Shown here: positions 35,209 to 42,103 of the stretch, piece after piece
How positions within the stretch are numbered: position 1 is the first letter of the stretch
Layout of the letters: each line of letters begins with the position of its first letter
Assembly (NCBI GenBank): GCA_011620345.1
Contig: WOZJ01000060.1
Span: 1-57,121 of the forward strand
Direction of reading: 5' to 3'
From: Nitrospirota bacterium
GTDB taxonomy: Bacteria > UBA2233
Length of the DNA stretch: 57,121 nt
Position numbers and translations under genes: made by a program
Notes under the pieces: model-generated
Told to the model about the DNA's origin: nothing
Database searches by the model: none
What the model saw: only the letters and a program-made list of their open reading frames with translations

Positions 35209-35922
35209 CTAGGCGTTTTCTGACGGCTCACTCTCGAGCTTGAAGTCATGGCCTCTTCTGGCCCGTTCGAGCGTCCGGTTAAGGTTAAACTGTGCGGGCT
35301 CGTAGGATTCATCCAAGGCAAGCGCTGCCTCGTACATCCGCTGGGCCTCGGCAATATCGCCTGCAAGCTCGAACACGACGCCCAAAAGGTTGAACGGCTC
35401 GGCCCGCGTAGGATCGAGCGCACAGGCTCGTTTCAAGTATTCTGGGGCCTTTGTCCAGTCGTGCTGCGTGATGGCATTCTTGGCCATTCCCAGGGACTCT
35501 TCGAAGGTGTCCACCTTTTCAGCGGGCTTTGCAACGAGCCTGCTCCTGGTCAGCACGGATTTTACGATAGCGCGGATCTCCTCCGGCGTAAAGGGCTTTT
35601 GTAGGTAATCGACCGCGCCCAGTCGCACCGCCGAGGCTGCCGTCTCGACCGTGGCGAAGGCCGTCATGACGATGACGGGTTGGCCAGGCTTGCGCTTTTT
35701 GACCCTTCTTAGCGCCTCCATCCCGTCGAGGCCGGGCATCTTGAGGTCCAAAAGGACAAGATCGAATACCCCATCGGAAAACTTCTTTAGCGCGTGCTCG
35801 CCGTCCACGGCGGTCACGACTTCGTAGCCCTCCACCCCAAGCGCCTGGTCGACCAGCAGGCGGATGTTGGGCTCATCGTCCGCCACGAGAATCCTGGGCT
35901 TGCGCGGGTCTAAACTGGCCAT
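35209..35922 (-). CDS. Response regulator with REC and C-terminal TPR domains
   Basis: ADDE, LLDLKMP, MTA, QKPF; then ALDPTRAEPFNLLGVVFE...YEAALALDESYEPAQFNL TPR; no HTH. Confidence 0.88.
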   Translation of the reverse strand: MASLDPRKPRILVADDEPNIRLLVDQALGVEGYEVVTAVDGEHALKKFSDGVFDLVLLDLKMPGLDGMEALRRVKKRKPGQPVIVMTAFATVETAASAVRLGAVDYLQKPFTPEEIRAIVKSVLTRSRLVAKPAEKVDTFEESLGMAKNAITQHDWTKAPEYLKRACALDPTRAEPFNLLGVVFELAGDIAEAQRMYEAALALDESYEPAQFNLNRTLERARRGHDFKLESEPSENA

Positions 35923-35934
35923 GGCATTCCTCCT

Positions 35935-36297
35935 TCAGCCGGTGTTCAGCGTTGCATTGACCGCATCGAGGAGTTCCTTGGGCTCGAAAGGCTTTATGAG
36001 CACGTGCTCGGCCCCCTCGAGTCCTTCAATGTTCGGGTTGGCTGAAATCATGATGATCTTGACCTGGCAGGTCCTGGGGTCTTCCTTGAGCGCCTTGGCG
36101 ACCAGGGTTCCGCTGACCTTTGGGATGACCATGTCGAGAAGAACGAGGTCCGGCCTTAGCTTGTGAGCCAAAAGGAGCGCTTCGAGCCCGTCGTGTGCGG
36201 TGTTGACCAGAAAGCCTTGCTTTTTCAGACACAACGAAATGGCAAGCGCCGTGTTTTGGTCGTCCTCGACGACGAGAACGGTTGTAGGCTTTTTCAT
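35935..36297 (-). CDS. Single-domain response regulator
   Basis: VEDD, LLDMVIP, ISA, IKPF; 120 aa. Confidence 0.9.
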   Translation of the reverse strand: MKKPTTVLVVEDDQNTALAISLCLKKQGFLVNTAHDGLEALLLAHKLRPDLVLLDMVIPKVSGTLVAKALKEDPRTCQVKIIMISANPNIEGLEGAEHVLIKPFEPKELLDAVNATLNTG

Positions 36298-38153
36298 TAT
36301 CGCCCCTCAAGTGGAGCACTTTTTGGGACGGTGAAGAAAAACGTGGAGCCTGAACCGGATACGCTCTCGACCCAGATTCTGCCGCCGTGGGCCTCGACCA
36401 CATCTCGCGCGATCGCAAGCCCGATCCCAAGCGCCCCCGATGGCCCTGAGCCCTCAATCTGGCTGAAGCGGTGGAAGATGGCCTCCTGCTGCTCTTTTGG
36501 GATACCGACCCCTGTATCCTGCACCCAAAACGCTACAAAGGCGCCCTGGTCTTTCAACCCAATCCGGATTGTCCCTCCTTCTTGCGTGTAGCGCAGCGCG
36601 TTCCCTATAAGGTTGGAGAACACCCACAAGATTTTTGGGTCAGCCCATACCCATAAGGGGCTGGGGGGAGGCTCCAAGACAAGGCTTACCCCCCTTTCCT
36701 TGGCCTGGGCCGCGAACAAGCGCTCTGCTTGCTGAAGCAAAGAAGCGGCGTTCTCGCTTGCGAAGCGCATCGGGATCTTGCCCACCTCGATCCTGGAGAG
36801 GTCGATCAGGTCTGCAACGATACGCCTCAATCTTAAGGCATCCTCGCGAACGGCCACAACGAGGCGCTTTTCCGTGGAACCCTCCGGGATGAGCTCGCTT
36901 TCAGCCAGAAGTCCGGCGCCCATCAAGATGGATGTCAACGGGGTCCTTAACTCGTGCGAGGCGCTTTGGAAGAACTCTGTCTTGAGCTGGTCGAGCTCTT
37001 TGAGTTTTGTGATGTCGCTGAAGATCAAAACGGCCTTGCTCGGTTCGTTAGGCTCCTGCTGGAGCCGACTGATTCTTAGCAAAAAATGCTTGGACGTGCC
37101 CATAGGGCAGCTAAGGCGCATCGTCCTTTCAAAATGGGGTTCGTTGGCCGCGTAAGGGCTTTGCTCGTTGCCGAGCGCTTCTTTAAGCAAGGCGTAAGGC
37201 TCTTCGGCCTTCAGCTCGAGCAGGTGCTTTCCTTGGATGGCATGCACTGTAAGCCCCCAGATGTCTGCCGCCGCCTTGTTGGCGAGCGTGATGGTGCCCG
37301 AAGCGTCCGCAACCAAGATGCCGTCCCGGATACCCTCGAGCACCTGCTCCAAGCGTTTTTGCCCCAGAAGGAGGCGCTCGGTGTTCTTGTGCTCCCGGCT
37401 CTCGAGGGCCTCTATGAGCCCGTTGAAGGCGCATGCAAGCTGCCCGACCTCATCGGCCGATTTGACCGGGATCTTTCCGGTATGGCCGCCGTCCGCCAGG
37501 TCTTTCAAGGAACGCTCCAGCCTTTGAAGGCTTGAAAAAACCCTGCGACCCCAGGCCATCATGAGCCCTAAAGATGCCGCATTACCGACTAAAAAGACGA
37601 ATACGACGAACAAGGCTAGGTTTCTAGAGCGGGCCCTTAGCGTGATACGGGTACGCTCGGTCTGTCTTTGGATCAACGCCTGGAGGTCGTTGCCCGCTTG
37701 CCTTGCCGCCATGAAGGCGGGGTACATCTTGGAGAGGTAGAACTCGGTGCGCGGTGTTGTGGAGCCCTCGAGGGCAAGCCCGCCTAGCTTGAAGAAGCCC
37801 TCGGAGTAAGCCTGAGATTTCATGCCGAGCACGTCAAGCAGCCCGGTCTCGCTCGCGAGCATCGCGCTTTCCTTGGCCTTTGCATACCAACCAAGGAACT
37901 CTTGCTGGCTTTTTAAGAACAGCCGGGTTCCGAGCTCTTGCTTGCCAAGAAGGTACAAAAGGGCGGCGCTGTCCTGCCGCTCGAGCGCGGCCACCATCTT
38001 TTCTGCGGCGTTGCTGACCTTGGCGTTGCGCGTCAAGAGCCGCTCTGTCGTCCTCTGGAGTGTCTGGATGCCACAAAGCCCGGAAAGCCCGACAACGGCC
38101 GAGACGAGTCCCATCAAGGTGCAGCCAAGCGCAAGGCGTACTTTCAGGCTCAC
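36297..38153 (-). CDS. Membrane sensor histidine kinase (periplasmic helical sensor, HAMP, PAS, HisKA, HATPase)
   Basis: Two TM segments, DEVGQLA.AFN (HAMP), PAS, SHELRTPL, NLIGNALRY, DTGVGI, GIGL. Confidence 0.93.
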   Translation of the reverse strand: MSLKVRLALGCTLMGLVSAVVGLSGLCGIQTLQRTTERLLTRNAKVSNAAEKMVAALERQDSAALLYLLGKQELGTRLFLKSQQEFLGWYAKAKESAMLASETGLLDVLGMKSQAYSEGFFKLGGLALEGSTTPRTEFYLSKMYPAFMAARQAGNDLQALIQRQTERTRITLRARSRNLALFVVFVFLVGNAASLGLMMAWGRRVFSSLQRLERSLKDLADGGHTGKIPVKSADEVGQLACAFNGLIEALESREHKNTERLLLGQKRLEQVLEGIRDGILVADASGTITLANKAAADIWGLTVHAIQGKHLLELKAEEPYALLKEALGNEQSPYAANEPHFERTMRLSCPMGTSKHFLLRISRLQQEPNEPSKAVLIFSDITKLKELDQLKTEFFQSASHELRTPLTSILMGAGLLAESELIPEGSTEKRLVVAVREDALRLRRIVADLIDLSRIEVGKIPMRFASENAASLLQQAERLFAAQAKERGVSLVLEPPPSPLWVWADPKILWVFSNLIGNALRYTQEGGTIRIGLKDQGAFVAFWVQDTGVGIPKEQQEAIFHRFSQIEGSGPSGALGIGLAIARDVVEAHGGRIWVESVSGSGSTFFFTVPKSAPLEGR

Positions 38154-38359
38154 GAGAGGATAGGGTCTTTTTGGTCGAGCTCAAGAAGCGCCCGAAACGA
38201 CAGAGTTTCGCGTCTTGCCGCCGCTTTTCTATAAAGAGGGGTATGCCTTGGATGACGTATTTTTGTGCAGGGCTTGAGAGTGTGGAACATCAAGAAGTAT
38301 TATAACGTCTTAGGTTTGAAAACAAGAGGATTGGTCCGGAATCCAAGAGGGCGGCGGGT

Positions 38360-39091
38360 ATGGGTGTAGTCAAAGACGAGGTGTTCAAGGAGCCAAAGGG
38401 CCGCTTGAGCGATTTTGTGTTCGATGAGGAGGTAGTAAGGGTTTTCGACGACATGGTCGATCGCTCGGTTCCCTATTACGCCGAGATCCAGCGGATGATC
38501 ACGGAGCTTACGCATGCCTTTGTCAAGGACGGAACGCGCGTCTACGACCTAGGCTGCTCGACGGGAACGGCGCTTTCGCTCATTTCCAGGGGGCTAGACA
38601 AGGATGTCGAGCTTGTTGGGGTGGATTCATCGGCCCCGATGCTCGAGGAGTGCCGGCAAAAGCTCGTCAAGTCCGGGATGGATAGGCCCTTCCAGCTCTT
38701 CGAAGCGGACCTTTCCATGCCGTTTCAAATCGAAAACGCCTCCGTCGTGCTGCTTGTGCTCACGCTGCAATTTCTTCGCCCCCTTTACAGGCCTTCGCTC
38801 CTCAAGGCGATCTACGACGGGCTCGCCAAAGGCGGGGCTTTGCTGCTCGTAGAGAAGGTGCTATCCGCGGATGCGGGCTTGAACCGGCTTTTCATCCGTT
38901 TTTACTACGACTACAAAAGACGCGTTGGTTACGACGAGCTCGAAATTTCTCAAAAGCGGGAGGCCTTAGAGAACGTGCTTGTCCCATACAGGCCCGAGGA
39001 GAACGTCGAGCTCTTAAAGGAAGCGGGCTTTCAAACGATCGAGACGTTCTTTCGCTGGTATAACTTCATGGGTTTCGTGGCCGTCAAATGA
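38360..39091 (+). CDS. cmoA: Carboxy-S-adenosyl-L-methionine synthase
   Basis: DFVFDEEVVRVFDDMVDRSVPYY, YDLGCSTG, TLQF, EISQKREALENVL, WYNF. Confidence 0.9.
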   Translation: MGVVKDEVFKEPKGRLSDFVFDEEVVRVFDDMVDRSVPYYAEIQRMITELTHAFVKDGTRVYDLGCSTGTALSLISRGLDKDVELVGVDSSAPMLEECRQKLVKSGMDRPFQLFEADLSMPFQIENASVVLLVLTLQFLRPLYRPSLLKAIYDGLAKGGALLLVEKVLSADAGLNRLFIRFYYDYKRRVGYDELEISQKREALENVLVPYRPEENVELLKEAGFQTIETFFRWYNFMGFVAVK

Positions 39092-39810
39092 GCTCGATGA
39101 TTCCGATAGGCCGGTTCTTCTTCCGGTTCCGAAACGCGCTGTTCCCCGTGTTCTTTTTTGCGCTTGCGCTGCCCTGGCCGCCTATCGAAGCACACGCCGG
39201 CTCGAGGTGGCTCTACTGGGCAACCGGCTTAACGCTCATTCTCTTGGGCCAGTTGATTCGCGCTTTGACGATCGGGCTCGCCTATATCGTCCGCGGCGGC
39301 CGCCAAGGCCGAATTTACGCCAAAGGGCTCGTCAGCGAAGGCATTTACGCACACTGCCGAAACCCTATGTACTTGGGCAACATGCTGATAGTCCTTGGGT
39401 TTGCCTTTGTTGCCGATACATGGCCCTTTTATCTGATTGGCGTCCCGTTGTTTCTTTTGATTTATTTGAGCATTACCAAGGCCGAGGAAAGCTACCTCCT
39501 AAAAGAGTTCGGCGATGCCTACCGGGCGTACATGCGAAACGTTCCCCGATTCCTGCCAAGGCTAAAAGGGCTGATTTCCACGATCCGGAGCATGCAGTTT
39601 CGCTGGAAGAAGCTTGTGTCCTCAGAGTACGGAACAACGTTTGGCTGGATTGCCGGAGTCATTTTCTTGACGATGAAGAACGTCGTCATCGCTCAAGGTC
39701 TTTCTGGCGGGCTTTATGAGCTGCAAGGCTTGAGCATAGCCTTCGCCGCGTTCCTTTCGTTGTACTTGACCGCTAGGTACCTGAAGAAAACCGACAGGCT
39801 CAGGGGCTGA
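39088..39810 (+). CDS. ICMT/PEMT-family integral-membrane methyltransferase-like protein
   Basis: LVSEGIYAHCRNPMYLG, EESYLLKEFGDAYRAYMRNVPRFLP; multiple TM segments; ATGA overlap with cmoA. Confidence 0.88.
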   Translation: MSSMIPIGRFFFRFRNALFPVFFFALALPWPPIEAHAGSRWLYWATGLTLILLGQLIRALTIGLAYIVRGGRQGRIYAKGLVSEGIYAHCRNPMYLGNMLIVLGFAFVADTWPFYLIGVPLFLLIYLSITKAEESYLLKEFGDAYRAYMRNVPRFLPRLKGLISTIRSMQFRWKKLVSSEYGTTFGWIAGVIFLTMKNVVIAQGLSGGLYELQGLSIAFAAFLSLYLTARYLKKTDRLRG

Positions 39811-39812
39811 TC

Positions 39813-40529
39813 GTGGCCCGGGGCCTTTTCATTGCCGGTACGGATACTGGCGTAGGCAAGACGCTCGTTACGGCCGCGCTCGGGCTTGCCTTGAGAGCCC
39901 AGAGCATTCGAGCGGGCGCGATGAAGCCTATCGAGACGGGCATCGTTTGCGAGCCCATGCCCGATAGTCTACGGCTAAAAAGCATCCTAGGGCTTAAAGA
40001 GCCGATCGAAGCCTTAAGCCCCTACCGGTTTGCAGATCCGCTAGCCCCGGCCGTTGCCGCTTACCTGGAAGGACGTAATCTCGAGCTGGCCGTTGTAGCC
40101 GAGGCTTTTGAAGCCCTCCTGTCCGCCTACGAGCTCATTTTGGTGGAAGGGGTAGGGGGGCTTTTGGTTCCGTTGGCGCCTGGGATTTTCGTATCCGACC
40201 TGATCGCGTTTTTGGGTTTGGACGTGCTGCTTGTCGCAAGAAAGGGCCTCGGGACGATTAACCACACGCTGCTTAGCTTGGGAGCGCTCGAGGCCAAGGG
40301 GCTTCGTTGCGTAGGGGTCGTGCTGAACGATACCGAAGGCAAAGGCGGGCTTGCCGAATCGACGAACCCGAAGGCGATTCAAGGGCTGATTGGCGTGCCT
40401 TTGCTCGGCGTGTTTCCTTACCTTTCTGAAAAAGAGCGCGAGGATGTAGAAAGCCTCAAGAAAGCGGCGATTCAAAGCCTCGATATAAAGACGCTCCTTT
40501 CGGGCGCCCTGCCTGAATCGCCTAATTAA
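39813..40529 (+). CDS. bioD: Dethiobiotin synthase
   Basis: GTDTGVGKT, KPIETG, VEGVGG, LGTINHTLL. Confidence 0.95.
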   Translation: MARGLFIAGTDTGVGKTLVTAALGLALRAQSIRAGAMKPIETGIVCEPMPDSLRLKSILGLKEPIEALSPYRFADPLAPAVAAYLEGRNLELAVVAEAFEALLSAYELILVEGVGGLLVPLAPGIFVSDLIAFLGLDVLLVARKGLGTINHTLLSLGALEAKGLRCVGVVLNDTEGKGGLAESTNPKAIQGLIGVPLLGVFPYLSEKEREDVESLKKAAIQSLDIKTLLSGALPESPN

Positions 40530-42103
40530 GCCGACGAAGCTTTCCCGGTGCTCGTCTCGAAGCGGTACTGCAACGCCTCCAGTAGGTGCTTGGGGGCGAT
40601 GATGCCTTCTCCTTCGAGGTCGGCGATCGTCCTAGCGACCCGAAGCACCTTGTGCAAGCCTCTCATGGAGATCCCGAATCGCTCGAACGCACGCTCTAAG
40701 AGCGCTTTGGACTTGGACTCGAGCCTTGCATGCTGTTTGAGCTGGGCGGGCGAAAGCCGGGCATTCGTTCGGAGGGCCTGGTTTGCGTAACGTTCGGCCT
40801 GGATTTTCCTCGCTTGCAGGACGCGCTCGAGAATTGCTTTGTCTTGTCCGCCTTGCGCGTCCTCTTGTGCATCGCTTTGGGCCGTAAGCTCTTTGAGGCT
40901 CACGGGAGGGACGAAGACTTGAAGGTCGATCCGATCGAGGATCGGCCCGGAAACCCTCGAGCGGTACCTGGACAGTAGCGCCGGGGTGCAGGTGCATGGC
41001 TTGCTCGGGTGTCCCAGAAAACCGCATGGGCATGGGTTCATGGCGGCGACAAGCAGGATGCGGGCGGGGTAGCGAACGCTCGCCTGGGCCCGGACGATGT
41101 CGATCGTCCCCTCTTCGAGGGGCTGACGGAGCGCTTCCAGCGCGCTTCGCTTGAACTCTGGAAATTCGTCTAAAAATAATATACCGTTATGCGCTAGACT
41201 GATCTCGCCGGGCCTTGGGGGGTTCCCCCCGCCGGTCAGGCCGACATCGGAGATGGTAGTGTGGGGCGAACGAAAAGGTCGTTCGGTAAGAAGGCCGGCT
41301 TCTTTGGGGAGCTTGCCCGCGACCGAGTATATCTTGGTCGTCTCGATCGCCTCTGTTTCGTCCAATGGCGGAAGCAGCGAGGGCATGCACTTGGCAAGGA
41401 GCGTTTTTCCGGCACCCGGCGGGCCTTCCAAAAGTAGGTTATGCCCGCCCGCGGCGGCGATCAAAAGCGCCCTTTTGGCGAACTCTTGCCCGACAACCTG
41501 GCCTAGGGTCAATAGGGCACTTCTGGCGTTGTCCTGCCGGGTTTGGACTTCCCGCTCGTAGAAGGGCATGGGAGCGGACTCTTGAAGCCAACCAACGACG
41601 CCTGCCAAGTGCTTGACGAACAGCGCGCGAAAGCCGCCCACGGCGAGAGCCTCGGCACGGTTGTCGTAAGGGAGGACAAAGCTCGAGAACCCGAGCGCTT
41701 TTGCGGAGGCAACTATGGGCAGAACGCCCGGGACGGGAAGCACCCGGCCGTCCAAGGCAAGCTCGCCCAAAAACACGACGCTTTCTTCGGGCGCCTTTTT
41801 GAGCATCCCCCCGAGCAGGATGCTCACGGCGATGGGCAGGTCGTAGCCCGTACCGTCTTTCTTGACGTCGGCGGGGGCCAGGTTTACCGTGATGCGTTTT
41901 AAGGGAAACCGGCCGATTGTGGCCTGGATGGCCGATCGAACCCTTTCCCTCGATTCCCGGATGGCCGTATCTGGCAGGCCTACAAGGCTAAAGGCGGGCA
42001 GGCCGGGTGTCAGGTCGGCCTGGACTTCGATAGGAGTGGCCTCTACCCCTTTTAGGCAAAACGCGTGCGCAAGGGCCGCACTGCCTAGATGAGCGTCAGC
42101 CAC
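40526..42103 (-). CDS. comM: YifB/ComM Mg-chelatase-like AAA+ ATPase
   Basis: VGLPD.AIRESRERV, NLAPAD, GPPGAGKT, RPFRSPH, FLDEFPEF, NPCPCG; GTG start at 42103 inferred. Confidence 0.9.
   Translation of the reverse strand: MADAHLGSAALAHAFCLKGVEATPIEVQADLTPGLPAFSLVGLPDTAIRESRERVRSAIQATIGRFPLKRITVNLAPADVKKDGTGYDLPIAVSILLGGMLKKAPEESVVFLGELALDGRVLPVPGVLPIVASAKALGFSSFVLPYDNRAEALAVGGFRALFVKHLAGVVGWLQESAPMPFYEREVQTRQDNARSALLTLGQVVGQEFAKRALLIAAAGGHNLLLEGPPGAGKTLLAKCMPSLLPPLDETEAIETTKIYSVAGKLPKEAGLLTERPFRSPHTTISDVGLTGGGNPPRPGEISLAHNGILFLDEFPEFKRSALEALRQPLEEGTIDIVRAQASVRYPARILLVAAMNPCPCGFLGHPSKPCTCTPALLSRYRSRVSGPILDRIDLQVFVPPVSLKELTAQSDAQEDAQGGQDKAILERVLQARKIQAERYANQALRTNARLSPAQLKQHARLESKSKALLERAFERFGISMRGLHKVLRVARTIADLEGEGIIAPKHLLEALQYRFETSTGKASSA

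Follow-up and report, generated by a model that had tools for sequence, protein, structure and literature searches.

In this study, we describe two overlapping genes in a 57,121-nucleotide (nt) contig stretch of a Nitrospirota bacterium (contig WOZJ01000060.1 of assembly GCA_011620345.1), which we refer to as the window and which belongs to a genome of 1.80 Mb in 72 contigs with a completeness of 96.8%, termed the source genome. The first gene encodes a homologue of the carboxy-S-adenosylmethionine (Cx-SAM) synthase CmoA and the second an integral membrane protein with the fold of the ICMT/PEMT family. We propose, with a probability of roughly two in three, that both constitute a two-gene module, in which a Cx-SAM synthase provides the cofactor for a membrane carboxymethyltransferase acting on a membrane-associated acceptor. 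In the proposed mechanism, CmoA would convert S-adenosylmethionine (SAM) and prephenate to Cx-SAM, which the translationally coupled membrane enzyme would take as presumed donor in place of SAM to pass a carboxymethyl group (–CH2–COO–, +58 Da) to a phosphate, amine, carboxylate, hydroxyl or thiol nucleophile, with the acceptor presumably being an amphiphilic molecule of the inner membrane. The whole case rests on gene association, conservation and predicted fold. The features of the pair are as follows:

38360–39091, forward strand: cmoA, 243 amino acids, predicted carboxy-SAM synthase of the pair-linked CmoA clade
38957–38959, forward strand: codon of R200, which aligns to Arg199 of E. coli CmoA (4gek)
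39088–39091, forward strand: ATGA overlap of the cmoA stop codon (TGA, 39089–39091) with the start codon of the membrane gene (ATG, 39088–39090)
39088–39810, forward strand: membrane gene, 240 amino acids, integral membrane protein of ICMT/PEMT fold, presumed carboxy-SAM-dependent carboxymethyltransferase
39283–39312, forward strand: Y66-I-V-R-G-G-R-Q-G-R75, part of a predicted β-hairpin (strands 69–72 and 75–78), a subfamily signature that holds R69
39352–39381, forward strand: H89-C-R-N-P-M-Y-L-G-N98, family-wide cofactor-binding motif, counterpart of the RHPxY motif of ICMT
39484–39489, forward strand: E133-E134, family-wide acidic pair of the cofactor pocket

The two open reading frames (ORFs) occupy the whole interval 38360–39810 on the forward strand, and the overlap of stop and start codon that had been recognized in a preliminary description of the window is found at 39088–39091. 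That description had also proposed to test whether cmoA and the membrane gene form a conserved pair, and their distribution shows that they do. A search of 5.8 billion proteins identified 702 relatives of the membrane protein at E≤1e-10, among them a tight group of proteins of about 240 residues from many phyla that are 42–52% identical to the window protein. A Terrimonas species is one of the bacteria that encode a subfamily member (P0101). With a profile of 74 members of this subfamily, 394 representatives of 50%-identity clusters were retrieved from 1.84 billion sequences at E≤1e-30, while a threshold of E≤0.001 returned 35,014, which corresponds to the superfamily. Scanning of 185,579 species genomes yielded at least 584 loci for the subfamily, of which the best 80 were examined. 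Judged by record titles, these 80 loci come from at least nine phylum-level groups, including Nitrospirota-type bacteria, 'Deltaproteobacteria', Planctomycetota (mostly Brocadia), Verrucomicrobiota, Eisenbacteria, Bacteroidota (about half of the loci, mostly Chitinophagaceae), Acidobacteriota, Gammaproteobacteria and Methylomirabilales. A cmoA homologue is present in 78 of the 80 (tblastn with the window CmoA), with an identity of 43–64% that rises to 97% in the same-genus locus L034, and in 70 of the 80 it is located on the same strand not more than 150 nt upstream of the membrane gene. The distance between the cmoA stop and the start of the membrane gene in the 78 loci is a short overlap in 27 (in 22 of them the 4-nt overlap observed in the window), 0–30 nt in 24, 31–150 nt in 19 and 156–1685 nt in 6, with the exceptions being L101, where cmoA is found downstream, and L041, where a frameshift hides the distance. 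One of the two loci lacking cmoA, L043, starts 10 nt before the membrane gene at the end of a contig; the other is L059, whose genome is described below. Locus L109 (genome G087), which is flagged as unpublished, enters the counts as a single unit, and none of our conclusions hinges on it. An all-versus-all clustering of the 924 ORFs of the 80 loci revealed cmoA and the membrane gene as the only two genes that cross taxa (in 25 and 23 coarse taxa), every other cluster being lineage-specific. A pairing of cmoA with the membrane gene that is this frequent (78 of 80) over at least nine groups of phylum rank is far beyond chance. Two candidates for a joining of both genes were rejected: the apparent in-frame read-through from cmoA to the membrane gene of L041 is a frameshift artefact, and a 484-residue open frame in G468 turned out to be an ordinary pair.

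The window CmoA exceeds the curated cut-off of the family model TIGR00740 (265.4 bits versus 193.3) over its full length (profile positions 1–239 of 239) and aligns with E. coli CmoA (4gek, E 3e-55) and H. influenzae YecO (1im8, E 2e-54). In a residue mapping that presumes the 4gek chain to begin with a tag of 14 residues, an offset at which Tyr39 corresponds to Y40, the contacts Tyr39, Asp62, Gly64, Ser66, Asp89, Asp117, Glu164 and Arg199 of the E. coli protein are retained as Y40, D63, G65, S67, D89, D117, E165 and R200, with Asn90 and Asn132 being replaced by S90 and V133. Arg199, which is described in passages of the structural work on E. coli CmoA to form a salt bridge with the carboxylate of the cofactor (PMC3663124), thus has its equivalent in the sequence S197-Q-K-R200-E-A-L-E-N-V206, the arginine motif whose retention had already been pointed out, and the segment K199-R200-E-A-L-E-N205 is invariant in 32 of 32 pair-linked CmoAs. 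Based on family membership and these conserved residues, we infer that the protein, which is encoded by a single-copy gene in the source genome, is a true CmoA that makes carboxy-SAM from SAM and prephenate.

In a quick maximum-likelihood tree of 95 CmoAs, comprising 75 pair-linked proteins, 17 from genomes with CmoB and 3 scoring below the cut-off, with four loci omitted because their cmoA is partial or frameshifted, a well-separated split (Shimodaira–Hasegawa-like approximate likelihood ratio support, SH-aLRT, 99) divides a CmoB-linked group from a group that holds all 75 of the 75 pair-linked sequences. The window CmoA falls into this pair-linked clade, where gammaproteobacterial members are interspersed among those of other phyla, implying that both genes were inherited or transferred together. 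The separate position in the tree, the sub-threshold score for the narrower E. coli-type model NF011995 (199.9 bits versus 285) and the valine at the position of E. coli Asn132 could be taken to indicate that pair-clade proteins are conventional methyltransferases or make a different SAM derivative, while acting together with the membrane enzyme. We consider this highly improbable, as the TIGR00740 cut-off is exceeded, Arg199 and the KREALEN segment are invariant and the links to chorismate mutase described below fit a need for prephenate. It is also at odds with the gammaproteobacterium G178, which contains CmoB and whose sole CmoA match belongs to the pair clade, suggesting that enzymes of this clade make the same cofactor.

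CmoB is the transferase that uses Cx-SAM in tRNA modification. The preliminary description had noted the absence of cmoB from the window, and this absence extends to the entire source genome, where the best match to TIGR00452 scores 27.9 bits versus a cut-off of 275 in a search that recovered the E. coli cmoB control. The same holds for other carriers of the subfamily: in 50 of the 80 carrier genomes, picked for taxonomic spread (the 30 dropped were mostly Chitinophagaceae and Brocadia), not a single CmoB exceeds the cut-off, with the best match reaching 69.7 bits. In 151 Gammaproteobacteria drawn evenly around the carrier G069, which as related genomes are reported as counts without a statistical test, CmoB was found in 45, CmoA in 45 and both in 40. 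The five genomes containing CmoA without CmoB (G069, which was chosen as centre, and G100, G113, G209 and G219) all carry the membrane gene beside cmoA, and the membrane subfamily is found in none of the 45 CmoB-bearing genomes. In a sixth gammaproteobacterial genome with a subfamily member, G204, the adjacent cmoA is split by a frameshift. A domain-wide sample of 41 genomes, centred on that of the window, contains CmoA in five, of which two (from the genus of the window) have the pair, two have CmoB and one, G004, has neither. The rule that a CmoA without CmoB is accompanied by the membrane partner is thus strong, and in light of G004 not universal. The orphan cmoA of the latter (L147, G004:C4:43296-47006, 238.8 bits) is located next to an ORF with a CxxxCxxC motif of the radical-SAM type and to another that by eye resembles 2-isopropylmalate synthase (leuA), and G004 possibly represents a third kind of carboxy-SAM context.

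The absence of CmoB raises the question whether the membrane enzyme has replaced it non-orthologously and carboxymethylates 5-hydroxyuridine (ho5U) at position 34 of tRNA with Cx-SAM to give uridine 5-oxyacetic acid (cmo5U). The strictly complementary distribution in Gammaproteobacteria is the classic pattern of gene displacement. The route to cmo5U requires ho5U, which is made by either TrhO or TrhP (passages of PMC12783734). In the source genome, neither TrhO (PF17773) nor peptidase U32/TrhP (PF01136) has a match at E≤0.001 in searches that found the controls, and its gene content thereby places the module outside tRNA cmo5U34 synthesis in this organism. TrhO was detected in 16 of the 50 carriers (15 of them Bacteroidota by record title and one an unclassified metagenome-assembled genome), and 20 carriers have a U32 peptidase, findings that would be in line with a role in tRNA modification; the U32 family also includes RlhA and UbiU/V. 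Conversely, 17 of the 50 have neither, as is the case for the source genome despite its completeness of 96.8%, and for three of these 17 (G048, G060, G085) the record title reads chromosome or complete genome. Envelope-type neighbours do not fit a function in translation, and neither does a six-helix integral membrane protein whose family acts on amphiphiles or small molecules and for which we know of no tRNA-modifying member. A displacement of CmoB is thus a very unlikely explanation of the pair.

A further connection of the membrane enzyme to Cx-SAM synthesis is provided by its relationship to chorismate mutase. The carboxyl donor of CmoA is prephenate (passages of PMC10491745 and PMC12783734). 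In Eisenbacteria, a gene encoding a fusion of a CM_2-type chorismate mutase with 3-deoxy-D-arabino-heptulosonate 7-phosphate (DAHP) synthase is located directly upstream of cmoA on the same strand in three of three loci. Moreover, the 10 longest of the best 150 profile matches to the subfamily were scanned, and five of them contain a CM_2 domain fused to the C-terminus of the membrane enzyme, while a CmoA domain is found in none of the 10. The five fusions, which are divergent members of the subfamily, originate from five sources (JGI/IMG with Logan; Logan; ENA; an NCBI Phycisphaerales metagenome-assembled genome; JGI/IMG) and represent five separate 50%-identity clusters, making an assembly artefact unlikely. 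On the metagenome contig L156, a histidine kinase gene is followed by a membrane enzyme–CM_2 fusion of 367 residues and cmoA; the encoded CmoA is 50% identical to that of the window, and the N-terminal domain of the fusion, which has kept the RGG hairpin, is 45% identical to the window membrane protein. In the source genome, the CM_2 gene is found on another contig, and no CM_2 fusion was detected among the 8 genomes with a subfamily member in a sample of 301 Planctomycetota. Since chorismate mutase supplies prephenate, the co-substrate of CmoA, the fusions tie the membrane enzyme to Cx-SAM synthesis, and such linkage of a consumer to the supplier of a cosubstrate appears hard to explain unless the membrane enzyme depends on Cx-SAM.

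The same observations bear on the possibility that the membrane protein is an ordinary SAM-dependent methyltransferase, linked to cmoA either because it methyl-esterifies the carboxymethylated product of another enzyme or by shared regulation. All characterised members of the family use SAM, the SAM-binding motifs of the subfamily are unaltered, and in three carriers cmoA is apparently frameshifted next to an intact membrane gene. Additionally, ICMT and RhlM methylate carboxylates (passages of PMC11069360). Such use of SAM would leave CmoA userless, as CmoB is missing and no other candidate consumer of Cx-SAM is conserved with the pair, and it would account neither for the fusion to chorismate mutase nor for the presence of the membrane gene in all five CmoA-without-CmoB genomes of the gammaproteobacterial sample. 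We thus regard it as quite unlikely. With respect to the carboxymethylation of a lipid or envelope component that had been put forward in the preliminary description, it is the dependence on the Cx-SAM pathway that has gained from the CM_2 fusions and neighbours and the missing ho5U families, with the lipid or envelope part drawing on the membrane fold and on the Arn-like neighbours in planctomycetes only.

The assignment of the second gene to ICMT/PEMT-type membrane proteins, also made previously, is upheld by profile searches and structure prediction. The protein matches the Pfam family PF04191 (PEMT) with 43.8 bits (cut-off 25) and, weakly, PF04140 (ICMT) with 19.6 bits, which is below the cut-off of 24. 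Its three NCBIfam matches all stay below threshold: the top named match is the LmtA model TIGR04571 (81.2 bits versus 325; protein residues 8–198 aligned to profile positions 11–201 of 252), followed by the protein-S-isoprenylcysteine O-methyltransferase model NF040696 (56.3 bits versus 160, C-terminal half only) and the MddA model (23.6 bits versus 270). Three other subfamily members score 81–82 bits against LmtA. Two proteins from unrelated sample genomes, L007 and L012, are far closer to this model than any cmoA-linked member (219–229 bits versus the cut-off of 325) and are possibly lipid A methyltransferases outside Leptospira.

An AlphaFold2 model of the membrane protein, calculated from a 74-row alignment, is predicted with a mean local distance difference test score (pLDDT) of 88.8 and a template modelling score (pTM) of 0.86, and is matched to ICMT by Foldseek with a probability of 1.00. 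Residues 5–158 of this model superpose on Tribolium ICMT (5vg9) with a Z-score of 12.7 and a root-mean-square deviation (rmsd) of 2.5 Å over 136 residues and on Ma-ICMT (4a2n) with a Z-score of 11.3 over 146 residues, the rmsd over the ICMT structures ranging from 2.5 to 3.0 Å. A profile alignment to 4a2n (E 1.3e-12) brings the RxPxY and EE motifs of the cofactor pocket into register, the latter with the EE of Ma-ICMT, and RxPxY is also found in 5vg9. The remainder of the protein, residues 160–240, contains two long helices (173–234) with conserved F171, W173, E180-Y-G-T and R230-Y-L-K-K, for which a specific structural match was sought and none found. From the C-terminal CM_2 fusions and the six predicted long helices it would follow that the C-terminus is cytoplasmic and that the cofactor pocket lies on this side of the membrane as well. 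The subfamily member P0264, which is fused to an OmpA-type domain, fits a cytoplasmic C-terminus only if it contains further helices. Besides this OmpA-family fusion of 442 residues, architectures within the subfamily include a tandem double ICMT-like domain (P0124, 507 residues), a DUF2141 fusion (P0219, 366 residues) and an extra C-terminal transmembrane region (P0121, 455 residues).

To define features of the subfamily, its 74 members were compared to an outgroup of 27 further proteins resembling ICMT, taken from unrelated genomes and, in the case of a 33%-identical paralogue, from the source genome. This paralogue is encoded by a second ICMT-like gene (L025, G000:C16:8702-9262), which lacks the RGG hairpin and is not located beside cmoA. 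Subfamily and outgroup have R15, G54, R58, G85, R91, P93, Y95 and E133-E134 in common, with R91, P93 and the acidic pair being invariant in both sets (the acidic pair in 74 of 74 and 27 of 27 proteins, respectively). Residues that are invariant in the subfamily only are concentrated in the segment T61–A78 (Y66, I67, R69, G70, G71 and Y77), with Q55 and H89 beside it. This segment is predicted to form a β-hairpin that directly precedes the cofactor motif H89-x-R-N-P-x-Y-x-G-N98 and whose RGG sequence is an insertion relative to Tribolium ICMT, where it aligns to a gap. None of the 74 members deviates at Y66, I67, R69, G70 or G71, and at each of these positions at most 5 of the 27 outgroup proteins carry the same residue, with R69 being found in 1 of 27.

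The arginine-rich sequence of this hairpin, YIVRGGRQGR, had been suggested earlier to bind the extra carboxylate of the cofactor. Of this suggestion, the part concerning R69-G70-G71 is strengthened by their invariance and near absence from the outgroup, whereas R72 and R75, which are less than 90% conserved among the 74 members, do not share this behaviour. In known systems, the carboxylate of Cx-SAM is read by basic residues, Lys91 and Arg315 in CmoB and Arg350 in CmoX (passages of PMC10491745 and PMC12783734), and by analogy R69 is a reasonable candidate for this role in the membrane enzyme.

The potential acceptor was approached through the genes that flank the pair. Outside Chitinophagaceae, the two ORFs closest to it on either side were tallied, 147 in all, with 29 further Bacteroidota ORFs omitted. 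This set contains ten PMT_2 proteins (ArnT-like GT-C glycosyltransferases), nine histidine kinases, seven response regulators, six LAB_N proteins (lipid A biosynthesis N-terminal domain) and three DAHP synthase/CM_2 proteins. In Brocadia and other planctomycetes, the pair is part of a same-strand string of genes encoding a DegT aminotransferase, a GT2 glycosyltransferase, LAB_N, CmoA, the membrane enzyme and PMT_2, often including a two-component pair of the OmpR type, a string which resembles an operon for amino-sugar modification of lipid A or lipopolysaccharide (LPS) of the arn type. In Chitinophagaceae, the neighbours are housekeeping genes (Nfu, an MFS transporter, an ArsC-family protein and saccharopine dehydrogenase). 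Since no third gene is conserved with the pair, the acceptor is expected to be a common envelope molecule. By analogy and genomic context, we would place lipid A or an LPS precursor first, the head group of a phospholipid second and an amino sugar or other sugar on polyprenyl phosphate third, ahead of other amphiphiles and small thiols.

An acceptor outside the lipid phase has to be considered in this context. Cx-SAM could be used on a small molecule such as sulfide or methanethiol in an MddA-like reaction, leading to thioglycolate-type products. The MddA model among the NCBIfam matches (23.6 bits) illustrates that the family includes an enzyme acting on a small molecule, and a lipid-pathway gene universally linked to the pair is lacking. 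Moreover, TglF makes thiols natural acceptors of Cx-SAM (passages of PMC10491745). Yet, the MddA score is far under its cut-off of 270, and sulfur metabolism is not what recurs next to the pair, where envelope glycosyltransferases, LAB_N and two-component systems are found, which renders a small acceptor unlikely in our view.

Several observations weigh against a Cx-SAM-dependent carboxymethyltransferase in the envelope. We infer the use of Cx-SAM rather than SAM from gene association alone. A fusion of CmoA to the membrane enzyme, sought among the longer members of the subfamily, was not found, and in L059 (G063) both genes are present but unlinked, with cmoA located on another contig (216 bits). 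In L041, L107 and G204 (G204:C3:164989-165667), cmoA appears frameshifted while the membrane gene is intact, which may originate from long-read errors, reflect a decay of cmoA or mean that the membrane enzyme works without CmoA; two of these three carriers were presumably sequenced with long reads, as hinted at by their isolate names. G178 combines a pair-clade CmoA, not adjacent to cmoB, with CmoB and lacks the membrane partner, and the CmoA of G004 is accompanied by neither. At the cofactor site, several outgroup proteins contain an arginine within an (A/S)GGxTR loop at the position of the hairpin. Altogether, 33 of the 50 carriers have TrhO or a U32 peptidase, which leaves room for a role in tRNA modification in these organisms. 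Finally, the Arn-like context is limited to planctomycetes and one Verrucomicrobia locus, and in the source genome, which has LpxC, a search for LAB_N gave no match and the two PMT_2 genes are found on other contigs. In G178 (L140/L136, G178:C1:2940384-2941097), CmoB and CmoA are encoded about 120 kb apart.

The surroundings of the pair in the window include the following features:

36297–38153, reverse strand: PAS-HAMP histidine kinase, divergent from the pair, followed by two response-regulator genes at 35935–36297 and 35209–35922
38274–38303, forward strand: promoter-like site (TTGAGA, 18 nt, TATTAT), a weak match to the consensus that precedes the cmoA start by 57 nt
39813–40529, forward strand: bioD (dethiobiotin synthase; TIGR00347, 162.7 bits versus a cut-off of 83.3)

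The promoter-like site is the only one seen in the interval 38100–40700 compared to 0.9 expected from shuffled sequences, a frequency that is not above chance. With a gap of 2 nt to the end of the membrane gene, bioD is probably located on the same transcript as the pair, an arrangement which recurs only in the same-genus locus L034 (1 of 80 loci). A search for BioC in the source genome returned nothing over the cut-off (top score 58 bits versus 185), and a replacement of BioC by the pair was considered and rejected, since the pair is conserved elsewhere without bio genes. In two runs of oil-field RNA libraries, low-depth contigs cover positions 38263–38521 at the 5' end of cmoA and 39264–39442 in the membrane gene; as DNA can occur in RNA libraries, these contigs do not establish transcription. 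At least half of the sampled 31-letter words of the region 38200–40600 are present in 18 runs from 8 studies, labelled as oil field, soil, marine sediment, marine, sediment and sludge metagenomes. The lineage is isolated, with the sample of relatives consisting of one genome of the same genus (record title Nitrospirae bacterium UBA2233) and otherwise of genomes sharing only the domain.

If the proposed activity is correct, it would extend the reach of Cx-SAM, whose roles as donor so far concern a tRNA wobble base, two peptide or nucleotide natural products and one phage DNA base, to the cell envelope. It would also explain what a well-defined cluster of the large and nearly uncharacterised bacterial ICMT family does, one that comprises 394 representatives at 50% identity. 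The product would be a new lipid or LPS modification adding negative charge, which might alter the charge of the membrane, its binding of metals and the resistance of the cell to cationic peptides. Known modifications with 4-amino-4-deoxy-L-arabinose (Ara4N), phosphoethanolamine or methyl groups reduce charge, whereas a carboxymethyl group would act in the opposite direction. In a wider view, to which we would give even odds, the enzyme would be the first membrane-embedded Cx-SAM-dependent transferase, carboxymethylated envelope lipids would be widespread, the two genes would travel as a mobile module in at least nine phyla and their expression would be part of the regulation of envelope remodelling. 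Products may in this case include a carboxymethyl ester on a lipid A phosphate, N-carboxymethyl-phosphatidylethanolamine or a carboxymethylated undecaprenyl-phosphate amino sugar. In the literature within reach, we found nothing that joins carboxy-SAM with an enzyme of the ICMT/PEMT family or another membrane enzyme, and no report of carboxymethylated lipid A; this neighbourhood may have been mentioned elsewhere. To our knowledge, the Cx-SAM users described to date are all soluble and mostly of Rossmann fold. They comprise CmoB, TglF, Bacillus MccB, phage CmoX and engineered COMT/CNMT, none of which is a membrane protein according to the cited passages (PMC10491745; PMC12783734). On the side of the membrane enzymes, the ICMT family is divided into 230 clusters, most of which are stated to be without known function (passages of PMC11069360).

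A comparison with characterised systems places the pair between two groups of enzymes. With CmoA/CmoB of E. coli and other Proteobacteria it shares the family of the first enzyme and the order of a Cx-SAM synthase gene followed by a transferase gene. Its second gene encodes a membrane protein of ICMT/PEMT fold, whereas CmoB consists of a Rossmann fold and an N-terminal domain; in contrast to the known system, searches of the source genome for CmoB and for the two families of ho5U hydroxylase were negative, and its CmoA belongs to a separate clade. A diversion of a CmoA homologue from tRNA modification towards a dedicated carboxymethyltransferase is also described for TglE/TglF, for MccS/MccB of Bacillus and for phage CmoA/CmoX (passages of PMC10491745 and PMC12783734), the acceptors of TglF, MccB and CmoX being a peptide thiol, a nucleotide and a DNA cytosine, whereas in the present case the transferase is embedded in the membrane. 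With respect to the second enzyme, the ICMT proteins including Ste14 and Ma-ICMT (5vg9, 5v7p, 4a2n) share the core fold of residues 5–158 and the RxPxY and EE motifs. They differ from the window protein by its RGG insertion, two extra C-terminal helices and presumed Cx-SAM donor, and the score for NF040696 stays at 56 versus 160. LmtA of Leptospira, a lipid A 1-phosphate O-methyltransferase with SAM as donor, is the best named model and provides a precedent for an envelope lipid as acceptor within the family; the membrane protein nevertheless reaches only 81 bits of a cut-off of 325, with L007 and L012 being far closer. The ICMT family is also represented by RhlM of Paraburkholderia, which was found via its gene neighbourhood and modifies a non-protein amphiphile, and for which labelling with D3-methionine identified SAM as donor (passages of PMC11069360); whereas RhlM is encoded in an rhl cluster, the subfamily described here adjoins cmoA.

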